Source: Nanobdellota archaeon (lineage in GTDB: Archaea; Nanobdellota; Nanobdellia; Pacearchaeales; GW2011-AR1). Taken from it: a DNA stretch of 64,000 nucleotides. Within the stretch, counting starts at the first letter, position 1; every line of letters begins with the position of its first letter. The notes beneath the pieces were generated by a model. It worked only from the letters and a program-made list of their open reading frames with translations. It ran no database searches and had not been told where the DNA came from. The position numbers and the translations under genes are program-made. This document shows, piece by piece, positions 9,022-64,000 of this stretch. The stretch lies in the NCBI GenBank assembly GCA_038045385.1, contig JBBSYE010000001.1:42165-106164 (forward strand), in the 5' to 3' direction.

Positions 9022-9098
9022 TATAACCAACAAACACTGCGGTGTTTGTTGGAAGTCCTTCTAGAAAAGCTTAAAAACCTGATAAAAGCCAGAATTAT

Positions 9099-9517: not shown

Positions 9518-9814
9518 ATGGCGAAAGATTGCATTGAAGTTATAGTAACTCCTGAGTTCGCATCAAAGGAAAAACCAGGCAAACTCGTCTTCCGAGGAAA
9601 ACCTCCGGCAATAGATATAAGACAAGAAATGCATCATGGTAGATCTTATGTAGTAAAGGCTCCTGCGTATGCCTATGGTCGTGAAATTGAAATAGTAGGT
9701 TCTATGGTCAAAGAAGCATTATGTTTAACTGACGCCCACCAAAATCATAGAATTAAATATTGCCTCTTCCAAGACGGAAAGAAGAAAATTGATATTTTTC
9801 CCCTCAAGACTTAA
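9518..9814 (+). CDS. Hypothetical protein
   Basis: 98-aa ORF. Confidence 0.35.
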   Translation: MAKDCIEVIVTPEFASKEKPGKLVFRGKPPAIDIRQEMHHGRSYVVKAPAYAYGREIEIVGSMVKEALCLTDAHQNHRIKYCLFQDGKKKIDIFPLKT

Positions 9815-9977
9815 CAATGGTGATAATAACCTTAAAATAAGAAGAACGTTATAGCAGAGAAGTCGGAGATAAAATTAAAGCCCTTATCCATAAGGAAAGA
9901 TTTCCAAGGGCAAGAACATCAAAAAACTATCAGAGAAAACAGGCCTAACCCAGAGTCATTCAGACAAAATTCTTACT

Positions 9978-10205
9978 TTGCTTGAAAATGGATTGATATG
10001 GGGCACAACAAGCGTTCATCCTGCACCAGAAAGTCTTGATAGAGTCATTACTGCTTTAGCCATATTAGGATTATCTTCAGAAGATGAAATTATTAACGAT
10101 TATAAAGAAAGAATCGGGCATTATGGTTTTACAATTCATAGATCCCAATCGGAGTTCGAACGTTATCAATCTATTTCTTTAGAGGCTCAAACAATCCAGT
10201 TTTAA
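9978..10205 (+). CDS. Hypothetical protein
   Basis: 75-aa ORF. Confidence 0.25.
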   Translation: MLENGLIWGTTSVHPAPESLDRVITALAILGLSSEDEIINDYKERIGHYGFTIHRSQSEFERYQSISLEAQTIQF

Positions 10206-11144: not shown

Positions 11145-11275
11145 GCGGGGGTAGCAAAGCGGTTAAATGCGCAAGACTTAAGACGTCCCGCGCTCGTTAG
11201 AGCGCGTGAAGCATTAGATTTCGGAAGAAATCTTGTGGCTTAGTGCCTTCGGAGGTTCGAATCCTCCCTCCCGCA
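11145..11275 (+). tRNA. tRNA-Leu (anticodon UAA) containing a ~47-nt intron in the anticodon loop
   Basis: GCGGGGG acceptor stem, 3-bp D-stem, and anticodon stem CAAGA...TCTTG. The stem is interrupted at 11184..11230 after the loop CTTAAGA. A long variable arm (GGCTTAGTGCC) indicates a class II tRNA. T-arm GGAGGTTCGAATCCTCC, discriminator A. Confidence 0.8.
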
Positions 11276-22243: not shown

Positions 22244-25057
22244 TCACTTCTCAATCTTCGCACAAAACTCGCAATTCTTCTCGGCCTTACAAAAAGCAAA
22301 ACCTTTCTTATAACATTCAAGAATTTCTTTAGCCGCCTCAATTATCTCCTTCCTAACTTCATGCAAAGAAAAAGCCATCCTATTGCTCCTAGAGTCTCTA
22401 GCAATACCCATGTTATCAATCTCATATTCCAACGGCTTCTCATTCTTAAAAACATCAAGAGTCACACGCTTCACATTCCCCAATCTTTGAGCCGCTAAAG
22501 CATAAAATCCTAACTGCCAATCTCTCTCACGTCCGTAAGGCACATGCGCTCCAGTTTTATAATCAATAATCTCAATCCAATCAAGATGGAAATCAATTCT
22601 ATCAGCATAACCTATAAAACGCAAACCATCAAGCGAAAGAAATAAAGACTGCTCGTTCTTAGACTCTTTATTATACTTATTTTTATTTCTCTCGAAAAAT
22701 ATTTTTAAAAGATGCTCTGCCTCTTTCAAATTAACTCCTCTCCACTCTGCCTTGAGGGCCATCTGTTCAGCAAGAGAAATAAATTGCCTATCGCTAGTAA
22801 AAAGCTCTTTAACGCCCTCTTCAATAATCAAATGCACAAAGCTACCAAGAGAGCGTTGCTCCCAAGTCACAATTTCTTCAGGCATATTAAACACATACTT
22901 ATACTCATATTTTTTTTGACAATCTTTGAACAAATTTAACGCCGAAGGAGAAAATGTAATGTCTTTCTTAACTTCAATCTTTTCAGTTACTCCAAAATCT
23001 GAGTCAATCTCCTCGGTTTTATCTAAATCTCTCAAGAAGGTAACATTCTCATTATTCTTAAAATCAATTTCATTCAGAAATTGACTAACCTCTAAATTCT
23101 TTGCACCATATTTCTGCGCATAAGTCAAATAAAGTCGCTTCTTAGTTCTAGTACAGGCCACGTAAAACAATCTCCTTTCTTCAGCAAGTTGTTGCTCCTC
23201 TTGCTCTTCCTCAGAAGTCAAGTTAAAATCAGCAGGAATAAGCTTATTTCCAGAAATTGTAGTAATAGGAAATTTACCTTGAACTAAATTAGCAATTATA
23301 ACAATCTCATATTCAAGCCCCTTAGTAGCATGGGCAGTCATTATTCTCACTCCCTCGCTTTTAGCTTTAGGCATCGCCAAGTCTAGCCCAAGATGCGTCC
23401 TAGCGTCCAAATGTGCAAGAAAGCTCTCTAGGTCGGCATACTCACGCTCACTAAATTCTTTAGCATATTCAGTAAAAGTTTGGATTATAGCATTCTCTCC
23501 ATCCTCTTCCCTTGAAACTCTTGAAGCAATATTTGCTATCAAAGCAGATAGCTGTTGGCCTTTTAATTTCTCCAATTCCCTCAACAAAACCTGCATAATC
23601 TCAAATTTTTTCTTAGATTCATTAGAAAAAATTTCAGGAACATTTTTCAGCAGATACAAAGACAAGCCCTCGGCCCCTTTGTGCTCTCGAACATATTTTC
23701 CAAACTTTCCTAACTCCTCTCCATCAATTCCTTGAATCTTAGCAAATCCCCACCAAGCGTTACTTCCCCCAGATTTAGCCTGAAATATTTTATCTAATAT
23801 CACACACAAATTCCTGATAAGCTCAATCCTAGTATGAGCAAGTAAAGATTGCCTTTTTGATGAGCTAAACACAATTCCTCTACCTTGCAACGCTTTCTTT
23901 AGCAAGTTTGCCTGATTATGTGTTCTAAAAAGCACACAAATTTCTCCTCCAAGAACACCGCTCTTAATTTCAGACTCAATAATCTCCACAATCTTTCTCA
24001 CTTCTTCTTTGCTATCAAGCAATTCAATCACATTAACTTTCTCGCCTTCGATTTCTCTCGCATTCAAAACTGAAAAGCATTCATCTTTATCTTTGTAATT
24101 ATTTTCAATAGCCTTATGTGCAACTTTCAATATTTTATTTGGAGAGCGATGTGACTTATCCAACTTAACAAATTCCGTTTTCCCATATCGCTTCTTAAAT
24201 TCATCAAAAGTTCCGCCATAAGCTCCTCTAAACTGATAAATAGACTGATTCAAATCTCCGACTATAGTAATATTCCCTCTAGGCGCAAGAGCAAATAGCA
24301 AGTCTAACTGTATCTTATTTGTGTCCTGAAATTCATCAACTATAAGATATCCAAAATTACTCGCCAAACTTGGCTCTTTCTCCAGTAATTTTAAAGCATA
24401 ATAATGCAAGTCAGAATAATCAAGCATATTATATTTTAACTTTATTTTTTCATAGCCCCTCCAGCTTTGCAAAAATCTTCTCTGTTGCACATACGTTCCA
24501 AGCCGCTCAATTTCTTTTTTAATCTCATCTTTTTCCTCTTTCTCCAATCTAGTTGAATGATGTCTCAAGGTAAGCTTCTCAAGTTCAGCTTCAGGATTAT
24601 CAGGAAAATCTTTTGCGCTATTTTTCAAAAAAGATTCATACTTTTCAAGCATAATAGAAGATTCTTTCAAAGCCCCAATCGCCTCAATATACTGGCTACA
24701 TCTAATTGGAATGGTCTTAAAATATTGATAAAGCATTATCATTCCATCTTCAGGAGTTATAATCTTAAACTTCTTTGATATTCCAATTTTCTCGCCATAC
24801 TCTCTTAGCAAATCCCCACACAATCCATGAAAAGTCCGCACAATAGGAACTGCTTGCTCGCCAACCATTCCAACTAGGCGCTTATGTAAAGAATCGACCG
24901 CCTCATTTGAAAAAGTAACACAAGCAATTCTTCCAGGTGAGAAGATCTTATTTTTCACAAGATATGTGACCTTATCCGAGATAGTTCGCGTTTTTCCCGT
25001 TCCCGCTCCTGCAAGTATCACACACGGCTTATCAACACAAGAAAGAAAGTCCTCCAT
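22244..25057 (-). CDS. UvrD-like SF1 helicase fused to C-terminal PD-(D/E)XK (RecB/Cas4-like, Cys-cluster) nuclease
   Basis: 937 aa. N-terminal Walker A VILAGAGTGKTRTI with UvrD motifs. The C-terminus has GSFVHLIIEE...IDYKTG and a four-Cys cluster CKAEKNCEFC, typical of an AddB/Cas4-type Fe-S nuclease. Confidence 0.75.
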   Translation of the reverse strand: MEDFLSCVDKPCVILAGAGTGKTRTISDKVTYLVKNKIFSPGRIACVTFSNEAVDSLHKRLVGMVGEQAVPIVRTFHGLCGDLLREYGEKIGISKKFKIITPEDGMIMLYQYFKTIPIRCSQYIEAIGALKESSIMLEKYESFLKNSAKDFPDNPEAELEKLTLRHHSTRLEKEEKDEIKKEIERLGTYVQQRRFLQSWRGYEKIKLKYNMLDYSDLHYYALKLLEKEPSLASNFGYLIVDEFQDTNKIQLDLLFALAPRGNITIVGDLNQSIYQFRGAYGGTFDEFKKRYGKTEFVKLDKSHRSPNKILKVAHKAIENNYKDKDECFSVLNAREIEGEKVNVIELLDSKEEVRKIVEIIESEIKSGVLGGEICVLFRTHNQANLLKKALQGRGIVFSSSKRQSLLAHTRIELIRNLCVILDKIFQAKSGGSNAWWGFAKIQGIDGEELGKFGKYVREHKGAEGLSLYLLKNVPEIFSNESKKKFEIMQVLLRELEKLKGQQLSALIANIASRVSREEDGENAIIQTFTEYAKEFSEREYADLESFLAHLDARTHLGLDLAMPKAKSEGVRIMTAHATKGLEYEIVIIANLVQGKFPITTISGNKLIPADFNLTSEEEQEEQQLAEERRLFYVACTRTKKRLYLTYAQKYGAKNLEVSQFLNEIDFKNNENVTFLRDLDKTEEIDSDFGVTEKIEVKKDITFSPSALNLFKDCQKKYEYKYVFNMPEEIVTWEQRSLGSFVHLIIEEGVKELFTSDRQFISLAEQMALKAEWRGVNLKEAEHLLKIFFERNKNKYNKESKNEQSLFLSLDGLRFIGYADRIDFHLDWIEIIDYKTGAHVPYGRERDWQLGFYALAAQRLGNVKRVTLDVFKNEKPLEYEIDNMGIARDSRSNRMAFSLHEVRKEIIEAAKEILECYKKGFAFCKAEKNCEFCAKIEK

Positions 25058-51669: not shown

Positions 51670-51978
51670 TTATAATGTTGCTATCAAAAAAACAAATGCT
51701 ACAATAGTTATCAAAAACAGCATTCCAATAGTATATCCAAGCAACCAAACGGCATCATTCTTTTTTCCGTCCAGATATAACATTACAGGTTTTCCAAGCA
51801 CCAAGAATCCCGTAATCGCTGCGGAACAGACAAATAGCAAAAGCATAGCAATTGGAATAAGTATAGTATCTGGTTCAGAGGAAAAAGTCTGAAGAGAAAA
51901 GATAAAAGAAACTACTAAGAGAATATATGCCGTAGTTCCAAGTGAGTTAAGAATCGCTCTTTTTATTATTTTATTCAT
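51670..51978 (-). CDS. Small integral membrane protein
   Basis: 102 aa with three TM helices. Confidence 0.4.
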   Translation of the reverse strand: MNKIIKRAILNSLGTTAYILLVVSFIFSLQTFSSEPDTILIPIAMLLLFVCSAAITGFLVLGKPVMLYLDGKKNDAVWLLGYTIGMLFLITIVAFVFLIATL

Positions 51979-52010
51979 AATCCTCAGTATCTTTAATCTT
52001 TATATAATTT

Positions 52011-52268
52011 TCAGCGATGCTTGCATCCAGCCCAACAGCAAGGTCTGCGCTTTCCATTGATAAGATCTTCACATACTCTCTGTATATGATACTCCCTTGT
52101 TTCCGGCTTTTTAACAGAGGTAACCCAGCAAATCCACTCATTATGCGCAAGTGGCGTAAGACTTTTCCAGGCTTCCATAACCTTCGCGTTAGAGCCCATA
52201 GCTTTTCGTAAATCTGCAGGCATTTTATGCATCGCTTCTTTAGATTTTTTCATAGTAATTAGTAGCAA
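52011..52268 (-). CDS. YdeI-C-terminal-like small protein
   Basis: AHNEWICWVTSVKKPETREYHIQRVCEDL resembles the YdeI/YdhG C-terminal pattern. Confidence 0.35.
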   Translation of the reverse strand: MLLITMKKSKEAMHKMPADLRKAMGSNAKVMEAWKSLTPLAHNEWICWVTSVKKPETREYHIQRVCEDLINGKRRPCCWAGCKHR

Positions 52269-52382
52269 AGGTTTTATTTAAAGAATACGCCGGGATATAT
52301 ACATGGTGAAAAAAGTGTACGCTTTATAAAGAGGGATTTTCTCGCTTTGTTAGGTTGTAGAATTTGATAACTTTTCTTCTAT

Positions 52383-53948
52383 TTACATATAAAACATATA
52401 ATGCGTTTGAAGTGGAACGTTCCTATCTGCTTCGGATAAAATCTCTCCTACTTTCTTTGAAAATGCCAAAGTTATAGGCATTTCTGTACAAAACGCAGTA
52501 GTATTCCAATTTAATTTAGTTAAACCTAATATCTCTTCACAAATCTCTTTTATTTCTGAATCTCCATCATGATTAATTAAAACTGGTTGAGGAATACTAT
52601 TTCCTGGATAAGTTCTTAATCTTGGGATATACCCTATAGTGTACAATAGATGCTCTCCTTTATCCAGATTGATAAGCGTACCTCTTAACACAGGGTAGGA
52701 TCCTTTTCTCATAAATCTAATCCCCTTCCTTTTAGACAATGTAACGTAATCTCTTTTTGCAGTACCTATCGCTTTAGAGAATCCATTTTTTTCAGCTTTG
52801 GTAAATAAAGTAGATTTATGGACAACAACTCTCACTGGATCTCTTCCGGCCCTATTCTTATATCTTTCAATGGATTGAACTAATAACTCCTCCGCCTGTT
52901 TCTCAGATAAATGGGGTTCTTTGGTTTCTTCATCGACATAAACTTCAGTTCCTCTTAAAACCAACCCTTGTCCATCATGTGTAAAAACTTGAGCCATGGA
53001 AGTCTGAATATCCTGATTTGATGTTAATTTATCTCTATAAAAAGAAATTCCAACATAACAAGTATCGTCTCTAAGTTTTGCTAGCCTCCAAGGTTTTCCG
53101 TTTGCCTTGTAAAATAAAGCTGTAGAAAAATTCCAAGCAAAGGAAGATGGGTCCTGTTTTCTTTTACCAGCAGGATCATAATTTAGTATAACGTCTATAG
53201 TAGATTCTCTTAAGATTTGTATAGGCTTTGTTGGACTGATGCTCATCACTTTTCCTTTTAAAGCATTTCTAAAATCATAACCTTTTGGAATTTGCTGACT
53301 AGGAGATTTCATAGTTACACCCCACTCAGTTAGAAACATTTGGCTTTTCTTCTTTAGGTCATCTATCTTTTTCCCCAATTCAGACGTCTTGACTATTTTA
53401 GCTCCTCTCGTTCTAAGAGATATCCCGCAATATTCCTCTATCTCTTTCGGTAGACAGCAGATAATAACTTCCGGAGGATTATCATCCGCCATTATGTTTT
53501 TTATCTTAGACAGATATAATTCTACTGCTGAACCTATTCTTTCATTTACATCTATAATGTTTTTTATTTTTTCAATTTCATATTGTTGAACGGTCTCTTG
53601 CCAATTCTTAGCAATGTCAATAGAACAATTAAACTTTGTATCTTTAGACATGCCTGGATAAGGAGGATATAGCCACTTATTTGATTCTTTGTTTTCAATT
53701 GGTTTTTTTATCAGGTCAAGTATTTTTTTAACCTTCTCTATGGTGTTACTGTCTCCGATTATGCCTACAGAGACTTTGCTTAAAGAAACGCTTTCTGTTT
53801 CGTATCTATAGGGGCCATGGTATTTTAGTCCTAGTCGAGGGTCTTTTTCTTCCTTAAAGTCTCCAAAGACAAGATTACTCTCGTTTAGAAATTCTGAATC
53901 AAAAATCATTTTCTTCCTCCATGTGTTCGATTTCTTCACTATCTTCAA
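52383..53948 (-). CDS. Short prokaryotic Argonaute-like protein (MID-PIWI, predicted catalytically inactive)
   Basis: 521 aa. The block ALFYKANGKPWRLAKL..TCYVGISFYRDK matches the Ago KxGGxxW to GxDVxH segment, with the catalytic Asp replaced by Ser. VRVVVHKSTLF matches the RDG block, with RDG replaced by HKS. HLLYTIGYIPRLRTYPGNSIPQPVLINHD matches the PIWI C-terminal ...R.TRSVSIPAPAYYAH motif. Confidence 0.6.
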   Translation of the reverse strand: MKIVKKSNTWRKKMIFDSEFLNESNLVFGDFKEEKDPRLGLKYHGPYRYETESVSLSKVSVGIIGDSNTIEKVKKILDLIKKPIENKESNKWLYPPYPGMSKDTKFNCSIDIAKNWQETVQQYEIEKIKNIIDVNERIGSAVELYLSKIKNIMADDNPPEVIICCLPKEIEEYCGISLRTRGAKIVKTSELGKKIDDLKKKSQMFLTEWGVTMKSPSQQIPKGYDFRNALKGKVMSISPTKPIQILRESTIDVILNYDPAGKRKQDPSSFAWNFSTALFYKANGKPWRLAKLRDDTCYVGISFYRDKLTSNQDIQTSMAQVFTHDGQGLVLRGTEVYVDEETKEPHLSEKQAEELLVQSIERYKNRAGRDPVRVVVHKSTLFTKAEKNGFSKAIGTAKRDYVTLSKRKGIRFMRKGSYPVLRGTLINLDKGEHLLYTIGYIPRLRTYPGNSIPQPVLINHDGDSEIKEICEEILGLTKLNWNTTAFCTEMPITLAFSKKVGEILSEADRNVPLQTHYMFYM

Positions 53949-55353
53949 TTTCTAATCTAAACTCTGAAGATGGAATATCAAAAAGGATTCCTTTTGAAAC
54001 TTTAGTAGACGAAGGTTTCGAACTTATTTCTAAATAGTCTTGTACTTTGATATTTTCTCCCTCACCAAGTTGGTGTATCCAAAATAAAAGAGTATTAAGA
54101 TACATACTGTTGTATCTATTATAGGAAAGACGAGTTATTACTGCTCCCTCCTCCGGCCCAGAAACAACTCTTTTTCCATCATCAGTTATAACAAAAGTTG
54201 GGTTTATTTTAAGAAATAATCTCTTATTCAATATAATTGTACTCGCTTGAAAAGCCATATGACAATAAATATATCTTTTCAGTTGCTCAGCCCACATTCT
54301 ACTCGCCACTTGCCTATCTGATCGAACATATCTCCCAGCCCAACTTTCTTTTCTTTTTTCAGAATTAGATGGATAATAAAGTTTGTAGCCATCACGATGA
54401 TAATATAAACCTCTATTTATTGCTAAAAAAGTTATTTCTTTGTTAAGTAGTTCAATAATAATCTTTGATTTCTCTGGATCATCTAGCCAAGATTCAACTA
54501 GTTCTCTCGAAGCCGAGCTTGTAACTAATCCCGAATAAGGATTTTTACTATCTTGTAGATTCTCAAAAGTAACTATTTTTTTATTCCAACTTTTAAACTT
54601 TTTATAGAAGTCTGGTCTTATACTTCTCTCATACAAGTATTGTTTAATTGAGACATCATCTTCAAACTTACCCTCTCCTAGAAAAACGTATTTAGGTAAT
54701 TTTATAATCTCAAATAAATTACTAAAAATTTCTTCTTCTACATCATCAGGTTCTCCGCTCAAGACAGAAGTTTGATAATCAGTCTTTTCTATTCTCTTCT
54801 TAATTATTTCAATTTCGTAAGAAGTTGGATGTATGCTTTGAGTTCCCCTCCTATAAAATAATTCTCCTTTCTTGAATACTGATTTTGGTTTCCCATCTTT
54901 GTCATATTCACCATCTTTCTTTGGAACAAGCAGAGAACGAGAAGGCGGTATGTAAATATAAGCAAACCTCTTAGGAATGTTTCCTATCTCAATAATTTCT
55001 TCATGATAAAGTATCTCTAAAGGCTCATCAACATATGAATTGAATTTTTCTTGAAGAGTTGCTTGATCTACCTTATAATCTTCTCGGAGGCCTACAGGGA
55101 TAGGTTTTCGTTTTTCATCTTTCCAACCTATTAAAATCCAACCACCTCCATAATTACTGAAAGCTAGTATATCTTTTACTATCTCGGGAAAGTCAGATCC
55201 TTTTGAAACATCTATTACCAGCTTATAGTCAAGGTAAGGATTTTCAGATTTTTCTTTAAGATAATCTAATGCGTATTGCCCAAGTGGCGAAGACTCAACA
55301 TTGTCTATAACCACTTTCATTACAGGTTTTAAATTTACCTCTTGTTTTTCCAT
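53899..55353 (-). CDS. AlbA_2 (Schlafen-core-like) domain protein, putative pAgo-associated effector/partner
   Basis: 484 aa. N-terminus YLDYKLVIDVSKGSDFPEIVKDILAFSNYGGGWILIGWKDE matches the AlbA_2/Schlafen-box consensus (ExK...AFANT.GG.I.IGV.D). The gene overlaps the PIWI gene by 50 nt. Confidence 0.6.
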   Translation of the reverse strand: MEKQEVNLKPVMKVVIDNVESSPLGQYALDYLKEKSENPYLDYKLVIDVSKGSDFPEIVKDILAFSNYGGGWILIGWKDEKRKPIPVGLREDYKVDQATLQEKFNSYVDEPLEILYHEEIIEIGNIPKRFAYIYIPPSRSLLVPKKDGEYDKDGKPKSVFKKGELFYRRGTQSIHPTSYEIEIIKKRIEKTDYQTSVLSGEPDDVEEEIFSNLFEIIKLPKYVFLGEGKFEDDVSIKQYLYERSIRPDFYKKFKSWNKKIVTFENLQDSKNPYSGLVTSSASRELVESWLDDPEKSKIIIELLNKEITFLAINRGLYYHRDGYKLYYPSNSEKRKESWAGRYVRSDRQVASRMWAEQLKRYIYCHMAFQASTIILNKRLFLKINPTFVITDDGKRVVSGPEEGAVITRLSYNRYNSMYLNTLLFWIHQLGEGENIKVQDYLEISSKPSSTKVSKGILFDIPSSEFRLEIEDSEEIEHMEEENDF

Positions 55354-55402
55354 AGAAAGAGGATTAATTGGCTATGTATAAACTTTTCTAGCCTAGAGAA
55401 TA

Positions 55403-57304
55403 TTATTCAATTATATCTAGAAAATGAGATCTCTCGTTCTCTCTTCCCCAACCATTCTCATCGTAGTGTGTGATAACAAGAGAATTCTTTGCTCTGGAAA
55501 TAGCTACGTAAAATAATCTTAGTTCACTATCTCTCTTGTTGGTATCTAGCTCTTTAGTATAGAACGGTAAAGTTTTCTCATTACAGGAAATAAGAAAAAC
55601 GTGTTCCCATTCAAGTCCCTTCGCACTATGTATTGTACTGAGAATAACTTTGTCTTTTGTTTTGTCTTTTTTGTCTAGTTCAATCAGGCTATCCAAAAAA
55701 TCTTGTATCTGGTCCTTAGCTGGACCATATTCCTTAAAGAGTTCCTTTAAAACGTCAATGTTTTCTATTTTATCTTGTAATCTTCCAGGCTCCTCTCGAT
55801 ACTTATTTACAATTCTGGTCCTATAACCAAAGTCCTTTAGAAAAGATGAGATTGGATCTTCTTTAAAATTAATAATTAAGTCTTTTAATTTTTTAACTTG
55901 GTTTATTTTATCCTGGCTTAATTTAACTTCATCATAAAAGTCTAATGCCTCTATTAATGAACAGCCCCTTGTTAACGAGATATCTTCAAACTTTTTGACA
56001 GTTGTCTTACCTAAACCATCAAGTAAGGTAAAAATTCTTTCAAAATCAATAATAGAATGCGGATTGACCTTTAATTTTAGGAAAGCAGTAATGTCTTTTA
56101 TTTCCTCTCTTTCAAAGAAGTCTTTAGACTTAGCTAAATGACAAGGAATTTTATTCTTTTTCAACTCACGTTCAACGTCTTTTCCTATTCTATTGGTTCT
56201 AAACAAAACTGCTATTTGGTCTTTAGGAGTTTCCTTACTAATTAATTCTTTAATCTGATAGGCTATAAATTCAAGTTCTTCATCAAAATTAGAGAAAGAT
56301 TCAATTGCAACGTTCCCAGCATGGCTCTTAGTGCAGTTTAGTTGTTTGTCTATCTTAAACTTCATAGAGCCTATAACTTTATTGACAGAATCAATAATAT
56401 TCTTGCCAGAACGATAATTTTCTTTTAAGAAAATAGTCTTCTCGTTTTCGCTGAAATCAAAAACGAGTTGATTTGAAGATCCCCTCCATTCATAGATATT
56501 CTGACAATCGTCTCCAATAAGACATAGGTTGTTGTTCTTCAATAGATTAAGAATATTTTTTTGAACAACATTGAGATCCTGAGCTTCATCCACCATAATA
56601 GCCTTAAATCTTTTTGCATACTTTTCCCTTATTTCTTTATTCTTATCAAATAATTTATGAGTTAAGATAAGAATATCATCAAAGTCTATTAAATTTCTTT
56701 TTTTCAGTTCTTCCTCATATTTTTTATATACTTTGTTCACATATTTTCTTAAGTTTGGGTCTACTTTTATAATATCATCATCGAGAGCTTCTTCGACAAC
56801 ACCACCTTGAATATTGTCATCCAGGCTTGATTTTTCTGATAAGTTTTCAGCAAGAATACCTCGACTTTTGAATTTTCCAATCCAACTAACAAAATATTTC
56901 AGATTGTCTCCCTTGTAGTCTATATTCTCTCTAGTCATTATTTGTTTGACTATCTTCTTTTTATCAGCTTCATCATCGATTAAGGTAAATCCCTCGGCTA
57001 AGGAAGTAAATTTAACATTATCTCTTAGTATTCTAAGAAATAGTGAATGCATAGTCCCAATGTAAGGAGGTTCAGATCCCGTTCTTTCAACAATTTTCTT
57101 TACCATATCTTTAGCTGCCTTATTAGTGAATGTAGTCATCATTATTTCTCTCGGCTTGTATCCATGATTTTCAATCATATTTACATATCTCTCTACAATC
57201 GTTGTGGTTTTTCCGGTACCTGCACTTGCCATAATTAGGAGATTTCCGCTTACAAAATTAACTGCCTCTAATTGGTCTATATTGAGCTTTTTTACCTGAT
57301 TCAT
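55403..57304 (-). CDS. UvrD/Rep-like SF1 DNA helicase
   Basis: 633 aa. LLIMASAGTGKTTTIVERY (Walker A), FTNKAAKDM, VDEAQD, and the C-terminal YVAISRAK motif VI. Confidence 0.8.
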   Translation of the reverse strand: MNQVKKLNIDQLEAVNFVSGNLLIMASAGTGKTTTIVERYVNMIENHGYKPREIMMTTFTNKAAKDMVKKIVERTGSEPPYIGTMHSLFLRILRDNVKFTSLAEGFTLIDDEADKKKIVKQIMTRENIDYKGDNLKYFVSWIGKFKSRGILAENLSEKSSLDDNIQGGVVEEALDDDIIKVDPNLRKYVNKVYKKYEEELKKRNLIDFDDILILTHKLFDKNKEIREKYAKRFKAIMVDEAQDLNVVQKNILNLLKNNNLCLIGDDCQNIYEWRGSSNQLVFDFSENEKTIFLKENYRSGKNIIDSVNKVIGSMKFKIDKQLNCTKSHAGNVAIESFSNFDEELEFIAYQIKELISKETPKDQIAVLFRTNRIGKDVERELKKNKIPCHLAKSKDFFEREEIKDITAFLKLKVNPHSIIDFERIFTLLDGLGKTTVKKFEDISLTRGCSLIEALDFYDEVKLSQDKINQVKKLKDLIINFKEDPISSFLKDFGYRTRIVNKYREEPGRLQDKIENIDVLKELFKEYGPAKDQIQDFLDSLIELDKKDKTKDKVILSTIHSAKGLEWEHVFLISCNEKTLPFYTKELDTNKRDSELRLFYVAISRAKNSLVITHYDENGWGRENERSHFLDIIE

Positions 57305-57362
57305 ACTAGACTTTAGAGATTGTCTACTTTCTTAAGTTATTCTATCACTAATATTAAATCTC

Positions 57363-57638
57363 TTAATAATTGAACACAACTTGACTTTTTGAGAAAATAA
57401 CCCTGCTTCTTACCTTTACTTCTTTTCCGACTTTTGTCTTTGATATGAGGCCTAAATTTTCAAGCATCTTAACATAATCGGCCACTTTAGTGTAGGCTAG
57501 ATTCAGGTTAGACGCTAGCTCAGTAATACTGAGATCCTTATGTTGGGTGAGTTCAAGGACAGCGAATCGCATCATGTTTGACATGGCTTTTATTCTATCA
57601 TACACTTGAGGGTTCTTTAGGGTTGTTGAGGTTGTCAT
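57363..57638 (-). CDS. ArsR/winged-HTH family transcriptional regulator
   Basis: 91 aa. FAVLELTQHKDLSITELASNLNLAYTKVADYVKMLENLGLI is a wHTH motif. It is the first gene of the helicase-AlbA_2-PIWI operon. Confidence 0.6.
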   Translation of the reverse strand: MTTSTTLKNPQVYDRIKAMSNMMRFAVLELTQHKDLSITELASNLNLAYTKVADYVKMLENLGLISKTKVGKEVKVRSRVIFSKSQVVFNY

Positions 57639-57703
57639 TACACCAAATTTAGGGTAATTTTATATATTAACATAGTTCACCAAAAATGGTGTAATGTTCT
57701 CAC

Positions 57704-59124
57704 ATGGAAACCTCTACCATCCTCTATCCTCAAATTTACGATTATGATAACCTTATTTTAGCCTGGCAAAACGCCAAAAGAGGAAAGACAAAGCGAAGAT
57801 ATGTAAAACGATTTCAAAGAGACCTTAGAGAAAACTTGATTAAATTACAGGAAGAGCTTACTCATCAGACCTATCAACCGTGTGAACTAAAAACATTCAC
57901 GTTAAGAGACCCTAAAACAAGGAAAATATCAAAATCAGCCTTTAGAGATAGAGTTGTTCATCATGCGCTTTGTAATATTATCGTTTATACCTTTCAGAAG
58001 GGATTCATCTATGACTCGCACGCAAATCAAATAGGGAAAGGAACGCTCAAAGCTTTAGAGCGATTTGATGTTTTCAAAAGAAAGGTATCTAAGAACAATA
58101 CAAGAGAGGCTTATGTGTTAAAAGCAGATATTAAGCACTATTTTGAAGAAATTGACCATCAAATCCTTATAGGAATATTACGGAAGAAGATTAAAGATGA
58201 AAAAATTATCTGGCTCATAGAAAGAATCTTGTCAGTTAACCATAGGATAAAGGGCATGCCTTTGGGAAATTTAACAAGTCAGTTCTTTGCGAACCTATAT
58301 CTTAACGAATTAGATGTTTTTGTCAAGCACAAATTAAAGGCTAAATACTACATAAGATATGTGGATGATTTTGTTATTTTGCATGAATCAAAGGAGCAAC
58401 TAGGTAAGTGGAAGCAAGAGATTAATACTTTTTTAGATGAACGTTTGAAAATAGAACTACATCCAAGCAAATCAAATGTTTTAAGACTGAATAGTGGTAT
58501 AAACTTCTTAGGTTTCAGAGTTTTTTCTATCATAAACTTATAAGAAAAAGCAATTTAAGGAATTTTGAACGGAAATTCAATAATCTCAAAATATTATTTG
58601 ATGAAGAACTAATCGGGAGAGAAAAAGTACTAGAAGCCTTAGAAGGATGGCTCGCTTATTGTTCTCACGCAAATACGTACAAGTACCGAAAGTATCTCAT
58701 TAGAAACTTCAATACATCGTTTTCTCATGGAAACAAGCTCTTAGTTCACAATAAAAAGAATTATGCCAATTACATTAAGAGAGTTAAAGAAAGTGAATTA
58801 CAATTTTCAGTTCAAAAGACATTATTTCATTATAAGAAAGGTCTCAGAATAAAAGAAATCTCGGTCAAAGAAGGAATAAAAGAAGCAACAGTCTGGGGAC
58901 ATTTGGCTAATTTAATAGAACATAAACAACTTTCAGTGTGGGAAATTCTTCCACATAATAAAATCCATGCAATTATAAGAAAAATATATCGTAGAAAAGA
59001 AAGATTGCGAGATATCAAAAAGAGATTGCATGATAAATCAATAACATACGATGAAATTGCATGCGTGATGGCTAATATTAAATCAAAAAAGAAGTGGAAG
59101 AATAAGAGTCCTGGAAACAAGTGA
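57704..59124 (+). pseudogene. Group II intron-like reverse transcriptase/maturase, interrupted by a frameshift in a T6 run (~58523..58528)
   Basis: RT motifs 0-7 are present (NLILAWQNAKRGK; PKTRKISKSAFRDRVVHHAL; SHANQIGKG; YVLKADIKHYFEEIDH; MPLGNLTSQFFANLYL; RYVDDFVIL; LHPSKS; INFLGFRV). With T6 to T7 the frame continues ...FRVFFYHKLIRKSNL...EALEGWLAYCSHAN... (maturase X-like) to a stop at 59122..59124, about 472 aa. As sequenced the RT ORF stops at 58543. Confidence 0.65.
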
Positions 59125-59234
59125 GTTATTCCGAGCAAACGGCCATTGTCATTGTCAAGATTGTTCCTGCCGTTCGCATTCGACCTGTTCTCGAGCCTGT
59201 TGACAATCCACGCCCCAGAGCATAGCCCATTCAC
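59125..59234 (-). pseudogene. Fragment (~35 codons) of a paralog of gene 59964..60755
   Basis: 59131..59216 is about 80% identical to 60128..60213 at nucleotide level (DxDNGRLLGI vs DYDDGRLLGI). The fragment starts 7 nt after the RT stop. Confidence 0.5.
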
Positions 59235-59411
59235 TTATTACTCTTATCACCACCATTTCACGCATTAGGTGTTATGGCTGTATTTTATGACAATAAATTG
59301 CCACAGTGAACGAGCGTATAACCCAGCTTCTCATAGTTTCCCACGGTTGCCAGGACTTAGAATTTTAATAATAGGTGTATAAAAGGTTTATTGCAATATA
59401 TTAACTATTAT

Positions 59412-59939
59412 TCAATTGATAAAATCTAAGCTTGAATAAGTGTTTTTATTATCGCTATCGCACATGAGTAGTACTTTAGACTTCTTTTCTCCTCTTTTAA
59501 TTAAACACATAGCTCTATGATTTCCTAAAATAACTTCAAACAACTCCCCATATTTTCTAACGATTATTGGAATCTGAAATAATATTTCATCTACAACAGG
59601 ATATAATAAAGAAATTCTTTGAATAGATTCTTGACTATTCATTTTACTGGAATCTTTCAATTTTGTTCCTCTTTCTAAACCTCCATGAAAATCATCTAAA
59701 CATAACGAGTCTAAAGAAACTTCAATTAGTTGACAATACTTCTCGTTTAATCTGTCGAACCACATAAAGTCTCCCGAATTTAGTTTACTTCTAATCTGCT
59801 CTTTTGTAAGTGGAGAAACTCTCTTTTTTATATCTTTAATTTTCTTCTCAATTGAAGAATTTGATTTATTAGTAACGTGTTCTTGTTCATACAGTTTATC
59901 TATATAGAATAGTTTTTGTAGAATCTGTTTCTTATCCAT
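59412..59939 (-). CDS. Hypothetical protein
   Basis: 175-aa ORF. Confidence 0.4.
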   Translation of the reverse strand: MDKKQILQKLFYIDKLYEQEHVTNKSNSSIEKKIKDIKKRVSPLTKEQIRSKLNSGDFMWFDRLNEKYCQLIEVSLDSLCLDDFHGGLERGTKLKDSSKMNSQESIQRISLLYPVVDEILFQIPIIVRKYGELFEVILGNHRAMCLIKRGEKKSKVLLMCDSDNKNTYSSLDFIN

Positions 59940-59963
59940 TTATCAAACAGATAGAAGACTAAT

Positions 59964-60755
59964 TTAAAGTTTCTTTCTTAATGCAGCAAATGGTTTTAAT
60001 ACGTCAGGGTTTAGAACTCCTTCTAATCCTTTCATTGCACCGTCAAAAGCCTGTAAATCTGCCATAGTATATGCTTTTATGTTTGAAGCACCTTTTCCGG
60101 GCGCACTAAGCGCCTCCGGCGCTATACCGAGCAAACGGCCATCGTCATAGTCAAGATCGCCCCCGCCGAGCGCATACGACCCGTACTCGAGCCAGTCGAC
60201 AACCCACGCCCTCATCTTTGGAGCGTCGCCTGCTGAATCTGGGTAAACTCCCATTGCAGTATCATAACTAAATCTTTCCTTGCCTTCCGCAAAGATAAAA
60301 TCAGTATAATCATTAAGTAATGTCTGATCTCTAGCTAACACTTTCCATACAGGATGAGCTTTAACATCTTCTCTTGAAAGTGGAGTTTCTGTCTTTCCAA
60401 GTTTTCCTTTCTTGAATTCTTCTCCTTGTAAAGCATTGTAAACATCATCTGTTAAAGTTAAAGCACCATTACTTCTTGGACTTTCAGGAGTCATATCTCT
60501 TAAAGTTTGAGAATCAAGAACAATCTTTACTCTCCCATCTGGGTGATACACAACGGCATCTCCAGTATCGAAATAATTATCCATATAAGAAGTTTTAACG
60601 GCCTTATCAGAATTTCTAACATCAAGTCGTCTTTGCATCAATTGAGAAACATTCATAGGAACTCTGCCATCCGCTATCAATTTCGGCATTTGCTTTACAT
60701 TCTGGCCGTAAAATTCCTGATATACTTCTCTTGTTGCATTTAGCTTTAATCCCAT
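59964..60755 (-). CDS. Hypothetical protein (263 aa), GC-richer than surroundings
   Basis: Intact ORF with locally elevated GC (for example about 60.10-60.25 kb). It has a partial paralogous fragment at 59125..59234. Confidence 0.5.
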   Translation of the reverse strand: MGLKLNATREVYQEFYGQNVKQMPKLIADGRVPMNVSQLMQRRLDVRNSDKAVKTSYMDNYFDTGDAVVYHPDGRVKIVLDSQTLRDMTPESPRSNGALTLTDDVYNALQGEEFKKGKLGKTETPLSREDVKAHPVWKVLARDQTLLNDYTDFIFAEGKERFSYDTAMGVYPDSAGDAPKMRAWVVDWLEYGSYALGGGDLDYDDGRLLGIAPEALSAPGKGASNIKAYTMADLQAFDGAMKGLEGVLNPDVLKPFAALRKKL

Positions 60756-60810
60756 AGTAATTCTATAAAACTCCTATTTATAAACTTTTCTATTAGTTAC
60801 TACTTAGTAA

Positions 60811-63087
60811 TTACAATACCTTAATTTTATTTAACACTTCTTCTGTATTACCAGTATGTGCTAAAAAGAAATGTAGCTTACCCTTACCTAGCTCAGCCCA
60901 CTTATTGGCAATCTCAACTTTATAGCCAGTATCTTCGTTGCTTATTCTATCTCCGCCCTTCCACTCGATAGCTAGAAAGTTGCCTCTACTCGTTATTGCT
61001 ATAAAATCAGGATAGAATTTATTTGGTCTCCATCCTTGTATATAAAACGGATCTTTCTTTTCTTTATTTCTTACCCAAAATTTGATATTTGGCAAGGCTT
61101 CTGAATCTAACCTTGAAATAAAGGCATGTTCTTCTTTGTTTAACTTTCCAATATCTTCATAAAAATTTCTCTTAAACTTTTCTCCGACTCTATCAGCAAT
61201 CATAACTTTATCTGAGAATTTCTCAAACTCTTTTATTTTAATCTTCTTATCTTTTATAGATTTGTCAAATTGTTTCTTTGCATACTCAATAAGTCTGTCT
61301 CGGATAATCTCATCTAATTTATCTTTAAAAATAAAACGATTAACTGATAGTTCCGATAAACTATATTTCTTAAGCTGATATTCAACTGCCTTGTCCAAAA
61401 ATTTAATCTTATCTCCTTGGTCAATCATGACAAACTTAAGTTTTCCGTCTAACCATGAAATAAGTTCTTTTTCAGAGAAATTCTTATCTAAATAGGTAAT
61501 ATTGAGAGTTGTCTGCCTTTCTTTTACCCATTCGTTTTCTTTATGTATATCTAAAAGAAGTCTGCCATCATTGTCATAATGAATCTTAAAATCAAATTGA
61601 GTGTCTTGCTTGGAAAGTTCAAAATCTTCCCCTATAAGGTCTGCAAACTCTAAAGGCTCATCTTCAAAAGCCATGATCGGGGCAAATAAGTCGTCTTTTA
61701 CAGTTTTTCCTACTTCGAACTCATATTTTGGATTTTTCTCTTGTGCATTGATTAAGTCATATCTGCTAAAGCCGTTTGTTTCTAATCCATCTATAATCTC
61801 ATTTGCTACTTCGTTGAAATTCTTACCTGTTGCAAATATATAGGAATTGTTTAGTTCAGGATTCTTTTTTTCTTTGGCATTAGGAAGCCTTACAATTCTA
61901 CCTATAATCTGCTCAACAGATATTTTAGATCCGATATTTGCTACTGATATTAAAATGTAGGCAAACGAGCAATCCCATCCTTCAGCCAAAGCATTAACTG
62001 TGATGATATAGTTTATTGGACATTTCTTACTGAATAAGTCTACTCCTTCTAACTGGTTTTGAGAAGAAGTTTTTATTGCAATTTCTTCGTCAGGAATCTT
62101 ATGTTCTTTCATTAAGAAATCTTTTATATGTTGAACTGTAACAACAGTAGTCTTATCACTTTCCTTTTCTTGTTGTGCTTGTAGGAGTGCAATAGGTCTA
62201 ATATATTCGCCCTTCTCTTTCTTCGCAATATCAGACAATTCTTTTCTCTTAAGTATTCCTCTAGTTACTGCTTGTTGCCATTGGGAAACGCTCTCTAAAA
62301 CTATTGGAATTTTAACCATCTTCTCTTCTTTTAATTCAACAGAGCTAGTCTTTACCAAAACATTACTTTCTTTTCTTGGAGTTGCAGTATATTCTATGAT
62401 AAAACAGGGGTTAAGGTCTTTCAAAAATTGAATAGATAAATCTGTTTTTGTTCTATGTCCTTCATCTATTACAATTAAAGGATTACTAATTCTTATGACA
62501 TTAGCCAAGGAATTAATCACAGTACCCGACTCGTCTTTCTCTAGTTTGCTATCCTCTGCTAGATTTTCAAAATGACTTATGAGTTCACCGTTTTCTTGAT
62601 AAACTTTATATTTATTCTGTAATTTCTTGTCTTTTCTAAAGGAATCAAGACTAGATACGATAATACAAAGATTATTTTCTACATCTTGCTTTCTTATTCT
62701 TAGAGATTCTTCATTAGAGAAAATTCTTATTTTATTATCAAAATATTCATCTAAGATTTGTCTATGAAAGTCTTTTTTATCATTAAGCTTTCTTAATGTT
62801 TGAGATTTAATCGCTTCAGAAGGAACAAACCATATTATTATTCCTCTTTCTAACTTATTTTCTAAGGAAATATCAATTATTTCTTTAATTGAATGACAAG
62901 CAACAAGAGTCTTACCGCCACCTGTTGGGATCTTAATACATACAAATGGTACATTCCCAAAGAACTCTTCATTATATTTCTCTGCCGCTTTTGAGATAAA
63001 GGCATGCTTTGCTCCAAACTTATTTAATTCCTTTAGATAATCTTTTAACTCTTGAATTGCTTTTTCTTGATATTTCTTTAGTTCCAT
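60811..63087 (-). CDS. res: Type III restriction enzyme Res-like subunit (SF2 helicase + C-terminal PD-(D/E)xK nuclease)
   Basis: 758 aa. Motif I KIPTGGGKTLVA, motif II IVIDEGHR, motif VI QIIGRIVRL. The C-terminus YPDFIAITSRGNFLAIEWKG carries a D...E.K nuclease motif. The start overlaps the mod stop (ATGA). Confidence 0.7.
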   Translation of the reverse strand: MELKKYQEKAIQELKDYLKELNKFGAKHAFISKAAEKYNEEFFGNVPFVCIKIPTGGGKTLVACHSIKEIIDISLENKLERGIIIWFVPSEAIKSQTLRKLNDKKDFHRQILDEYFDNKIRIFSNEESLRIRKQDVENNLCIIVSSLDSFRKDKKLQNKYKVYQENGELISHFENLAEDSKLEKDESGTVINSLANVIRISNPLIVIDEGHRTKTDLSIQFLKDLNPCFIIEYTATPRKESNVLVKTSSVELKEEKMVKIPIVLESVSQWQQAVTRGILKRKELSDIAKKEKGEYIRPIALLQAQQEKESDKTTVVTVQHIKDFLMKEHKIPDEEIAIKTSSQNQLEGVDLFSKKCPINYIITVNALAEGWDCSFAYILISVANIGSKISVEQIIGRIVRLPNAKEKKNPELNNSYIFATGKNFNEVANEIIDGLETNGFSRYDLINAQEKNPKYEFEVGKTVKDDLFAPIMAFEDEPLEFADLIGEDFELSKQDTQFDFKIHYDNDGRLLLDIHKENEWVKERQTTLNITYLDKNFSEKELISWLDGKLKFVMIDQGDKIKFLDKAVEYQLKKYSLSELSVNRFIFKDKLDEIIRDRLIEYAKKQFDKSIKDKKIKIKEFEKFSDKVMIADRVGEKFKRNFYEDIGKLNKEEHAFISRLDSEALPNIKFWVRNKEKKDPFYIQGWRPNKFYPDFIAITSRGNFLAIEWKGGDRISNEDTGYKVEIANKWAELGKGKLHFFLAHTGNTEEVLNKIKVL

Positions 63088-64000
63088 TAGTAAATTCTCA
63101 CCTCATAAGGAATTTGTTTAAACTGAATTTTATGTTTCTCTAAGTTTTCTTCATCAAGAAGACATTTATCTGCGTAAATAACTCGGTTATTATCATCTTT
63201 CTTTATACTCTTTAGAAAAGATTTATTGAGTATATTTTTACCCCTTTCCTTAAAGATAAGATAATAATCTGTTTCGTTAAGGCTTCCAATTAGACTGTTC
63301 TTTATTTGCTTTTTATCTAAGTTCGTTTGTGTTTCCGTAAAATAAATATAATTGGCAAGTTGTTCAAATGTGCATTCTTCATCTATCTTTCCCTCTTCAT
63401 TGAATAATGGTTTATCTAATTCGCAGAATTCAAAACCTCCATTATGGTCTTCCTTCTCAATAGCTCTTTTTATTCTTTCGACAGTTACTTTTTTAGCAAC
63501 GTGATCTTCCATTTCTATCAGAATAAACCTCCTATCTCCTTTGTCTTTTTTATTTAATTGTAGAACTGCGTGTCCTGTTGTTCCTGTCCCGGCAAAAGAG
63601 TCTAATATAATAGATTCTTTATGATCATGAGTAATTATTGCTATTAGATATCTGATAAGACTCGATGGTTTTGGATAGTTGAATACTTTTTCTCCAAAGA
63701 TTTCCTTTAACTCTCGATTTCCATCTAAGGTAAAACCCTGCTCAGAAAAAATACTTCTAGGTTTAATCCTTCTTTCTTCTCCACTTTCGTGCAGATATAT
63801 TTTAGTAAATACTTGCCATTCACCTGATTTCTTATTTTTTACAAAATCTATTTTGCCTTCTTTCTTTGCCTGTAAAAATGTTTCTTTGCTATACCTCCAA
63901 ATATGCGGTTTAATGCTAATTTTTGATCCATCGGGGGCATCTATTTCATATTGTAAATTAGGTCGATTTTCATCTATTCCCGGCTGATAAAGATTATATC
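63087..64000 (-). CDS. mod: N6/N4 DNA methyltransferase (type III Mod-like, beta class), 5'-truncated by window end
   Basis: The frame is open from 64000 down to the stop at 63087. It contains LDSFAGTGTTGHAVLQLNKKDKGDRRFILIEMED, which is motif I (DPFxGSGTT-like) near the C-terminus as expected for the N6_N4_Mtase family. The DPPY motif is expected upstream, outside the window. The track ORF 63087..63512 is its internal-Met tail. Confidence 0.7.
   Translation of the reverse strand, partial: YNLYQPGIDENRPNLQYEIDAPDGSKISIKPHIWRYSKETFLQAKKEGKIDFVKNKKSGEWQVFTKIYLHESGEERRIKPRSIFSEQGFTLDGNRELKEIFGEKVFNYPKPSSLIRYLIAIITHDHKESIILDSFAGTGTTGHAVLQLNKKDKGDRRFILIEMEDHVAKKVTVERIKRAIEKEDHNGGFEFCELDKPLFNEEGKIDEECTFEQLANYIYFTETQTNLDKKQIKNSLIGSLNETDYYLIFKERGKNILNKSFLKSIKKDDNNRVIYADKCLLDEENLEKHKIQFKQIPYEVRIY

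Follow-up and report, generated by a model that had tools for sequence, protein, structure and literature searches.

Casposons are known chiefly because the CRISPR adaptation module is presumed to descend from them, and have been recognized in few genomes and with modest cargo. The DNA examined here is a stretch of 64,000 nucleotides from a Nanobdellota archaeon (GenBank assembly GCA_038045385.1, contig JBBSYE010000001.1, positions 42,165 to 106,164 of the forward strand), referred to below as the window, the last ~12 kb of which carry a short prokaryotic Argonaute (pAgo) system, a diversity-generating retroelement (DGR) and a type III restriction-modification (R-M) system. This block is very probably the cargo arm of a 19,350-bp family 2 casposon, a self-synthesizing DNA transposon, whose insertion site is the tRNA-Ser(GCU) 3' end of an ultra-small DPANN archaeon from groundwater.

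Described casposons have terminal inverted repeats (TIRs) of 25–602 nt and target-site duplications (TSDs) with a median length of 15 nt (PMC4046053), and integrate at the 3' ends of tRNA genes in either orientation (PMC4779613). For the Methanosarcina mazei casposon the TSD is 14 bp long, its first 4 bp being the last 4 bp of the tRNA and the remainder AT-rich sequence (PMC6977970). Cargo that has already been reported comprises a retron-like reverse transcriptase (RT), AbiF, methyltransferase and restriction endonuclease genes, tetratricopeptide repeat (TPR) proteins and a superfamily 1 (SF1) helicase (PMC4046053, PMC4779613).

The element described here resembles the family 2 casposons of M. 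mazei and Aciduliprofundum boonei (Krupovic et al. 2014, 2016; Hickman et al. 2020) in having a Cas1 casposase with a C-terminal helix-turn-helix (HTH), a casposon-type PolB, a putative HNH-like gene, small predicted HTH genes and variable non-core genes, as well as TIRs and a 14-bp TSD that overlaps the tRNA by 4 bp and continues as AT-rich sequence, with insertion in either orientation to the tRNA. It differs from them in its host, a DPANN archaeon (Nanoarchaeota/Woesearchaeota), in its size (19.35 kb versus the reported 6–16 kb), in its TIRs (93 bp versus 31–59 bp in most M. mazei copies) and in ~11.5 kb of cargo that make up a complete type III R-M system, a DGR and a short-pAgo system. 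No report of a type III R-M system, a DGR or a short pAgo in a casposon was found in the full-text literature searched, subscription journals lying outside its coverage, and full-text searches combining casposons with Argonaute, DGRs or DPANN returned reviews or incidental mentions only. Within that same coverage, we rate the element as a casposon of the family 2 type that is larger than those described before, is hosted by DPANN, is specific for tRNA-Ser and carries a set of cargo genes without precedent. Clustering of defence genes at a tRNA-linked attachment site in a mobile element, with exchangeable cargo, is also seen in Tn7-like elements, integrative and conjugative elements and phage satellites; unlike those, the vehicle here is a Cas1-based, self-replicating casposon rather than a DDE or tyrosine-recombinase element.

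Boundaries and target site of the element

The window forms part of a 145-kb groundwater contig, L001 (Hainich well H41, 0.1 µm fraction; coverage 28x), which was found by exact-protein match. The same block is also present in an NCBI metagenome-assembled genome, the contig of which stops near the RT gene. A repeat search of L001 revealed an inverted repeat of 93 nt, 100% complementary, with arms 19,164 nt apart; only two copies were found, and identity between them broke off abruptly beyond the 93 nt. The arm inside the window abuts the pAgo stop codon, and the second lies just beyond the stop codon of PolB. Immediately outside both arms is an exact 14-bp direct repeat, GGCGTATTCTTTAA, and the element thus bracketed runs from window position 52292 to window-equivalent 71641, i.e. 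7,641 bp past the window end. The two features of the in-window end are as follows.

52278–52291, no strand: TSD copy, 14 bp; an identical 14-mer lies at the other element end (L001 1433–1446)
52292–52384, no strand: TIR, 93 bp, in-window casposon end; 100% complementary to L001 1447–1539 (window-equivalent 71549–71641)

On the PolB side, the first 4 bp of the TSD copy are the last 4 bp of the tRNA-Ser(GCU) gene. On the other side the TSD is followed by host sequence carrying OmdA, and this TIR-TSD-OmdA junction is independently present in the Logan contig L005, which breaks inside the TIR. The first 31 nt of the TIR had no match in a viral contig collection. Synteny of the far-side flank was assessed by tblastn alone.

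A sequence-only reading of the window had described the last ~12 kb (52383–64000) as a defence island of modules placed back to back, contrasting with the housekeeping content of the 50 kb before it. The accessory, defence-rich nature of the block and its contrast with the preceding 50 kb, which hold the genes for IleRS, ArgRS, CysRS, aIF5B and the archaellum ATPase and so mark the host as an archaeon, were borne out, and a GC profile, proposed as a check, was modestly lower in the element (32.7%) than in the host part (35.9%), a gap of about 2 SD of host 2-kb windows. All genes named in that reading sit between the two TIR arms, and the modules lie about where it had put them, with limits that need correction: the block starts at 52292 rather than 52383 and ends 7,641 bp past 64000. 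What had been taken as a loose series of modules is instead the cargo of one transposon, with 93-bp TIRs, a 14-bp TSD, a Cas1 casposase and PolB, and the location of the "defence island" is explained by its lying inside that transposon.

Core genes and family assignment

Past the methyltransferase gene of the R-M system, outside the window, L001 encodes a small winged-HTH (wHTH) protein, a TPR protein and an intact 408-aa Cas1 and, on the opposite strand, several small genes and a 925-aa PolB. Residues 1–403 of Cas1 aligned to the M. mazei casposase (6OPM_A), C-terminal HTH included (561 bits, E 1e-167), and CRISPR Cas1 proteins scored ≤117 bits in the same comparison. Neither a Cas2 match nor a CRISPR-like repeat array was found within the element by profile scan and repeat search. 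PolB was 43% identical over 918 aa to the casposase-adjacent PolB of Methanosarcina sp. DH2 (L012), with which the gene order PolB-HNH-p212-Cas1 is also shared, and 37–80% identical to the PolBs of the sister elements described below. It contains the motif YMDTDS; a PolB_CDTDS group has been named for A. boonei (PMC7544198). The p212 gene is kept in all sister casposons; profile scans did not confirm HTH/HEAT domains. Cas1, PolB and the HNH-like gene outside the window together place the element among the family 2 casposons. A family 1 assignment was prompted by the DNA_pol_B_2 profile that PolB matched, and was rejected: Cas1 has the family 2 HTH tail and scores 561 bits against the M. mazei enzyme, PolB shares 43% identity with its counterpart in a Methanosarcina casposon, and a tRNA is targeted instead of ef-2.

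One further gene that probably belongs to the casposon core lies inside the window, between the pAgo and DGR genes.

57363–57638, minus strand: wHTH91, winged-HTH protein of 91 aa, HVO_A0114-like (Pfam HVO_A0114, E 1e-7)

Homologues of wHTH91, at 44–54% identity, are found near Cas1 in four sister casposons (L011, L018, L019 and L023).

Sister elements and exchange of cargo

Sister elements were found by scanning other DPANN genomes and metagenomes with the casposase. One from a Nanoarchaeota member of the same well (L009) spans 11.3 kb between 38-bp TIRs, with the TSD GGCGTACTTTTTAT, and is inserted at tRNA-Ser(GCU) in the opposite orientation relative to the tRNA. A Woesearchaeota element (L011) spans 11.0 kb between 32-bp TIRs, with a 14-bp TSD starting GGCG, at a tRNA end. 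In both L009 and L011 the TSD overlaps the tRNA 3' end in the manner of the studied element. In L013 the tRNA-Ser is followed by a TIR of which the first 41 nt are the same as in the studied element, and in L018 the tRNA-Ser adjoins the PolB end; the tRNA-Ser(GCU) target was identified in L009, L013 and L018. The tRNA-Ser of L013 carries an intron that the tRNA-Ser beside the studied element does not have. Across L013 (4940–10436), identity to the studied element varied from 100% for Cas1 residues 1–145 to 80% for PolB and 84–87% for HNH/p212; this mosaic implies recombination between casposons.

None of the sister casposons carries a pAgo, a DGR or a type III R-M system. Their cargo comprises DUF4238, a type IIG Eco57I-like enzyme with DUF5677, and AbiEii, and a type I R-M system lies nearby in L020. 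The comparison with sister genomes, which the sequence-only reading had named as a check, therefore found the block neither syntenic nor conserved, with different and smaller elements at tRNA 3' ends in its place. Loci of this kind serve casposons repeatedly as attachment sites, and the cargo found at them can be exchanged.

Part of the cargo was found in another setting. The stretch wHTH-Mod-Res-DGR-wHTH (Mod and Res being the methyltransferase and restriction subunits of the R-M system) is 87–89% identical at the nucleotide level to the contig L007 (Logan SRR29054608, 1–13497). Upstream of the Mod-Res-DGR block in L007 there is no Cas1 or PolB, and the genes there are unrelated to the casposon core, from which it follows that the block moves between contexts as a unit. 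Because wHTH91 homologues recur near Cas1 in the sisters, the present arrangement suggests that the R-M and DGR block was inserted between Cas1 and the core gene wHTH91. L007 also carries an inserted 590-aa DUF7380/EMARD_N gene and a second, unrelated 263-aa gene.

Alternative explanations

Several observations weigh against reading the block as casposon cargo, or against parts of that reading. The signature of an empty site or of excision would be tRNA-Ser joined directly to ATAAAACC, and the exact empty-site junction, CCGGGCGTATTCTTTAAATAAAAC, had no match in large genome-contig and metagenome-contig collections; as no empty site was found, the mobility of this particular copy is something that we infer. 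A short contig, L006 (513 nt, 1x), is 100% identical to the host OmdA flank (L001 20826–21188, window about 51900–52262) and departs 15 nt outside the TSD into AT-rich sequence with neither tRNA nor TIR, which a simple insertion does not predict. It was considered as an empty site and rejected on account of the absent tRNA and of the divergence 15 nt outside the TSD, and it was left out of the evidence, unexplained; L006 could be a strain with another arrangement, or a chimera. Among the core genes, the Pfam match of PolB is weak (DNA_pol_B_2, E 4e-11) and there is no NCBIfam match for it, and the 146-aa Cys/His-rich protein taken as HNH-like gave weak HNH matches (PHROG E 7e-4) and is 31% identical to the L012 HNH region. 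In the cargo, the RT gene lacks one base in the T-run at 58521–58526 relative to L007 (GT-TTTTTC), leading to a stop after codon 279, and the functions of the cargo genes are all predicted from homology.

The unmatched empty site in both contig collections, together with a GC gap to the host of only about 3 points, would fit a static chromosomal island that is inherited vertically, in which the repeats on either side arose by chance or have some other function and Cas1 and PolB have been domesticated. We consider this very unlikely: TIRs that agree perfectly over 93 bp and an exact TSD of 14 bp where a tRNA gene ends, combined with a casposase relative that is nearly full-length, are the signature of a casposon, and in related genomes the tRNA-Ser(GCU) 3' end is occupied by different elements, which face either way relative to the tRNA. 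A composite origin, with a casposon of ~8–11 kb lying beside a host defence island, the outer TIR left by a decayed tandem casposon and the pAgo, DGR and R-M genes being trapped host DNA, would agree with the size of the sister casposons (only about 11 kb), with the tandem casposon insertions at one tRNA documented in Methanosarcina (PMC4779613) and with the R-M and DGR block of L007 that has no Cas1 or PolB upstream. The two 93-bp TIR copies are, however, the only ones and 100% identical, with no internal third end, and the same 14-bp TSD brackets the entire 19.35 kb. Furthermore, wHTH91, which recurs near Cas1 in the sisters, lies beyond the R-M and DGR block and hence inside the same unit, and even formerly trapped host DNA would now still transpose as one element. 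A composite is therefore improbable.

Misassembly is a further alternative: metagenome assemblies can misjoin at repeats and contigs do break in or near the element (L005 inside the TIR, the NCBI contig near the RT), so that unrelated contigs joined via the inverted repeat might link casposon core and defence genes artificially. At just 93 bp the repeat is probably below read length, OmdA is also present in six other contigs, whose neighbouring genes are mostly shared, and in independent Logan assemblies, and L001 is covered 28x over 145 kb; a chimera is, on these grounds, extremely improbable. A single casposon that carries the whole block remains the preferred explanation, and its cargo is described on that footing below.

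Diversity-generating retroelement

The RT gene, two genes on the opposite strand and the template and variable repeats between them are arranged as follows.

57704–58543, plus strand: N-terminal 279 codons of the DGR RT (fingers/palm), ending in a premature stop (Pfam RVT_1, E 2e-20)
58522–59123, plus strand: C-terminal part of the RT (thumb and HTH_40-like), in the −1 frame, 200 open codons (alignment to L007)
59127–59215, minus strand: template repeat (TR), 89 nt, aligned to the variable repeat
59217–59354, minus strand: RT-16 RNA motif (Rfam RF03019), directly 5' of the TR; 70.3 bits versus a gathering score of 50
59412–59939, minus strand: protein of 175 aa, C-terminal half with a ParB-N/sulfiredoxin-like fold (structure model)
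59964–60755, minus strand: DGR variable protein, 263 aa, with a C-type-lectin fold, from variable repeat, model and family alignment
60123–60211, minus strand: variable repeat (VR), residues 182–211 of the 263-aa target protein

TR and VR were 83% identical, with 15 mismatches in 89 nt, and all 15 fell at adenines of the TR. With 26 adenines in the TR, an adenine-only mismatch pattern has a hypergeometric P of about 2e-10. The mismatches lie mostly at codon positions 1–2 of AAC, AAT and AGG codons, as read on the coding strand of the target gene. RT, TR/VR pair and GC-richer target gene are one DGR and not a defence system. The VR did not vary between assemblies, L002 and L027 being identical to the window. 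It is followed by a GC-rich block, GGCCGTTTGCTCGG, and a GC-rich inverted repeat lies at about 60100–60123; the hairpin GCGCC-GGA-GGCGC after the VR is kept in L007 and in L008, which holds a chromosomal DGR of Pacearchaeota, and has a fold z-score of only −1.1.

The target gene is the GC-richest of the block (40.7% versus 32.7% for the element) and has no Pfam or PADLOC match. Its protein has >400 homologues in Nanoarchaeota/Pacearchaeota, 65–90% identical outside the VR, and the VR stretch alone is hypervariable. An AlphaFold model of the protein was of moderate confidence (predicted local distance difference test (pLDDT) 67.5) and of low confidence in the VR itself, and the single significant PDB fold match was to 5IOO, the Nanoarchaeota C-type-lectin variable protein AvpA (E 9.8e-4).

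The RT sequence contains LGNLTSQ, which we take to be the [LIV]GxxxSQ motif that DGR RTs typically share. In L007 the orthologous RT is intact, at 473 aa with RVT_1 and HTH_40 domains. In the window the frame downstream of the single-base deletion is fully open. The truncated 279-aa product recurs in six contigs, one of them an independent Logan assembly with 100% identity to the window, and the frameshift is therefore real, as well as recent, with the DGR probably inactive in this population; the cassette is a DGR by descent that is probably non-functional now. Programmed frameshifting at the T-run is less likely, since the run is not a canonical slippery heptamer, and a simple inactivating deletion is favoured. 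A publicly called open reading frame of 134 aa (58830–59234, minus strand) overlaps the TR, antisense to the C-terminal RT frame, and is most likely spurious.

Other RT classes were considered. A group II intron maturase was rejected on the TR/VR evidence and on its sub-threshold score (153 bits on the maturase model TIGR04416, cut-off 300), and an Rfam scan of the window revealed no group II intron RNA, only RT-16. A defence-associated RT (DRT/UG) was likewise rejected, given the TR/VR evidence and sub-threshold scores. The RT/maturase proposed by the sequence-only reading is thus an RT, but that of a DGR. The same reading had pointed to two unknown genes, one GC-richer and with a duplicated fragment, as part of the likeliest place for novel systems. 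Both genes do lack profile matches, and the GC-richer one does carry the duplication; they are not separate defence modules, the GC-richer gene being explained as the DGR target and the other having a recognizable ParB/sulfiredoxin-like fold in a low-confidence model. The expected novel systems were thus not borne out.

This second gene, which encodes the 175-aa protein between target gene and TR, had no Pfam, PADLOC or PHROG match and only 6 homologues in 5.8 billion clusters, one of them named "ParB N-terminal domain-containing". Its model was of low confidence (pLDDT 58), with all top Foldseek matches to ParB, Noc or sulfiredoxin (Srx) (probability about 1.0, E about 4e-3), and the motif ILGNHRA is invariant. 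The gene is present in L007 and absent from the chromosomal DGR of L008. Avd, the accessory protein considered for it, was rejected in favour of the ParB/Srx-like fold, and no Avd was found in the DGR cassette.

RT-16 was also found in the equivalent position in L007 (80.4 bits) and L008 (72.8 bits). The discoverers of the RT RNA motifs proposed that some of them belong to DGRs (PMC5737381). A consensus fold predicts that two helices close a unit of RT-16 and TR (window 59085–59365, minus strand; L007 11391–11671; L008 10865–11145). The first, of 8 bp, would pair AGUCCUGG (59357–59350) with CCAGGACU (59114–59107, immediately 3' of the TR, antisense to the RT tail), and the second would pair 59329–59318 with 59129–59119. 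The prediction derives from three close sequences and includes 3 compensatory pairs. If it is true, a 5' RT-16 closed by a helix would give a priming geometry unlike the Bordetella phage paradigm.

The cassette agrees with the AvpA-type DGRs of Nanoarchaeota/Pacearchaeota (5IOO) in its adenine-only TR/VR differences, in a VR near the C-terminus of a C-type-lectin protein, in an RT with LGNLTSQ and an HTH_40 tail that is convergent with the target gene, and in an RT-16 RNA adjoining the TR; Pacearchaeota also have this cassette in a chromosomal setting (L008). It differs from them in riding inside a casposon and in its frameshifted RT. Compared with the Bordetella phage DGR, the position of Avd is held by the additional ParB/Srx-like gene, and whereas BPP-1 has its RT-10/Sp RNA 3' of the TR (PMC5737381), the structured RNA here is 5' of the TR, as in retrons. 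Formerly, TR RNA would have been copied by the RT, with errors specific to adenines, into the VR of the AvpA-family C-type-lectin protein, and the 1-nt frameshift now probably switches off diversification in this population.

Short pAgo, Schlafen-APAZ partner and UvrD helicase

The pAgo operon and the mod-res pair that the sequence-only reading had named are both present. The former is the first cargo next to the in-window TIR.

52383–53948, minus strand: short pAgo, MID-PIWI only, 508–521 aa (PADLOC pAgo_I, full-length, E 1.9e-153)
53899–55353, minus strand: Schlafen/AlbA_2-APAZ partner, 484 aa, predicted effector; overlaps the pAgo gene
55403–57304, minus strand: UvrD/PcrA-type SF1 helicase, 633 aa (Pfam UvrD-helicase, E 2e-67; UvrD_C, E 4e-57)

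The solved structures nearest to the pAgo are short pAgos (9jsb, 9qbp/9qbl, 9om4_B and 8qlo; E 1e-63 to 2e-69), and 9om4_B comes from the entry that also holds the HNH-APAZ partner 9om4_A, to which the APAZ half of the partner found here matched. At its N-terminus the partner has a Pfam SLFN_AlbA_2 domain (residues 37–175, E 2e-12), and C-terminal residues ~196–456 matched the PNTD1-PNTD2 part of the PADLOC pAgo-partner (Aga) models (E 2.7e-25). The Schlafen-APAZ family comprises 174 homologues, mostly archaeal (Nanoarchaeota, Methanoperedens and Nitrososphaeria). Within the Schlafen domain, 28 homologues show no variation at E37, D42, K44 and D61, a conservation that would be compatible with an active nuclease.

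Like SPARDA (DREN-APAZ) and SPARHA (HNH-APAZ), the system is a two-gene operon of an effector-APAZ gene and an overlapping MID-PIWI short pAgo gene; the effector is a Schlafen rather than a DREN or HNH domain. It has its Schlafen/AlbA_2 effector type in common with the fused SLFN-pAgo of Runella zeae, where this domain was shown to cleave tRNA, but here the Schlafen domain sits with APAZ on a polypeptide of its own, instead of being fused to a long pAgo that has a GHKL ATPase. The fused SLFN-pAgo cleaves tRNA upon guide-dependent DNA recognition, and SLFN-APAZ partners of short pAgos have been mentioned as a separate, uncharacterised group (preprint 10.64898/2026.05.29.728809). By analogy with SPARDA and SPARHA and with the tRNA-cleaving fused SLFN-pAgo, a guide-loaded pAgo, predicted from family membership to have a catalytically inactive PIWI domain, may sense invader nucleic acid, and this sensing would release the Schlafen nuclease domain of the partner and lead to abortive infection.

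In two other loci, L014 and L016, an SLFN-APAZ gene is followed by an overlapping gene of ~510 aa without a Pfam match, presumably a short pAgo by size and position. In L014 (Methanoperedens nitroreducens) the pair lies in an island rich in toxin-antitoxin genes (Fic, ParE, PIN and HicAB), and in L016 (Nanobdellota) it adjoins a tyrosine integrase, from which it appears that the SLFN-APAZ/pAgo system travels on other mobile or defence regions too.

The UvrD gene is co-directional with the pAgo pair and 49 nt upstream of it, and scores below all NCBIfam equivalog cut-offs. Schlafen and UvrD were both listed among pAgo-associated domains (Ryazansky et al.), and SF1 helicases are listed among casposon genes (PMC4046053). 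A role for UvrD as an obligate third gene of the pAgo system is not supported because, unlike in the studied locus, no UvrD gene is found beside the SLFN-APAZ/pAgo pairs of L014 and L016; UvrD could be an accessory to replication or could assist the pAgo pair. The housekeeping part of the window (22244–25057, minus strand) encodes another UvrD/PcrA-like helicase, larger at 937 aa and likewise below all equivalog cut-offs.

Type III R-M system and other features of the window

The last cargo genes within the window form a type III R-M pair.

60811–63087, minus strand: Res, type III restriction subunit, 758 aa (PADLOC REase_III, E 2.8e-93; Pfam ResIII and Helicase_C)
63087–64000, minus strand: Mod, type III methyltransferase, C-terminal 304 codons in the window (PADLOC MTase_III, E 3.4e-32)

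The stop codon of Mod overlaps the start of Res at 63087. In L001 the full Mod gene (8430–10001) is intact and encodes 523 aa (N6_N4_Mtase, E 1e-35). Res is 96.6% identical to the Res of L007, and a PD...E-x-K-like motif (YPDF...AIEWK) could be read from its sequence near the C-terminus. The pair would restrict unmethylated invaders and may also stabilize the element post-segregationally.

Two RNA features were observed in the host part of the window. An Rfam tRNA match of 131 nt at 11145–11275 (plus strand) was not called by ARAGORN and may be an intron-containing tRNA, and the signal recognition particle (SRP) RNA at 5007–5236 (minus strand) scored as "bacterial large SRP", at 60.3 versus a gathering threshold of 60.

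Implications

By the mechanism proposed here, the casposase would make staggered cuts 14 bp apart at the end of the tRNA-Ser gene, as its M. mazei relative does in vitro, and would join the 3'-CCC ends of the element to the target, with the element's own PolB copying the element. The casposon would in this way be a vehicle that carries a ready-made package of defence and diversification between genomes. A broader and more tentative proposal, which we hold to be possible but rather doubtful, is that the tRNA-Ser-targeting DPANN casposon lineage is a general defence shuttle, that this copy also captured a DGR with a hypervariable surface lectin, and that the TR RNA may be retron-like, with RT-16 on the 5' side of the template and held closed by a helix that it forms with sequence just 3' of the TR.

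For the casposon family, the finding points to a DPANN clade that repeatedly uses tRNA 3' ends (tRNA-Ser(GCU) where identifiable) and carries exchangeable defence genes, and of which one copy grew to 19 kb by gaining a full type III R-M system, a short-Argonaute/Schlafen system and a DGR. Casposons would thereby join the list of vehicles that spread defence islands. The element is also a natural case of a very large Cas1-integrase payload, which is relevant to casposase-based insertion tools, and it makes an uncharacterised Schlafen-APAZ/short-pAgo pair and a DGR RNA architecture available for experimental study.

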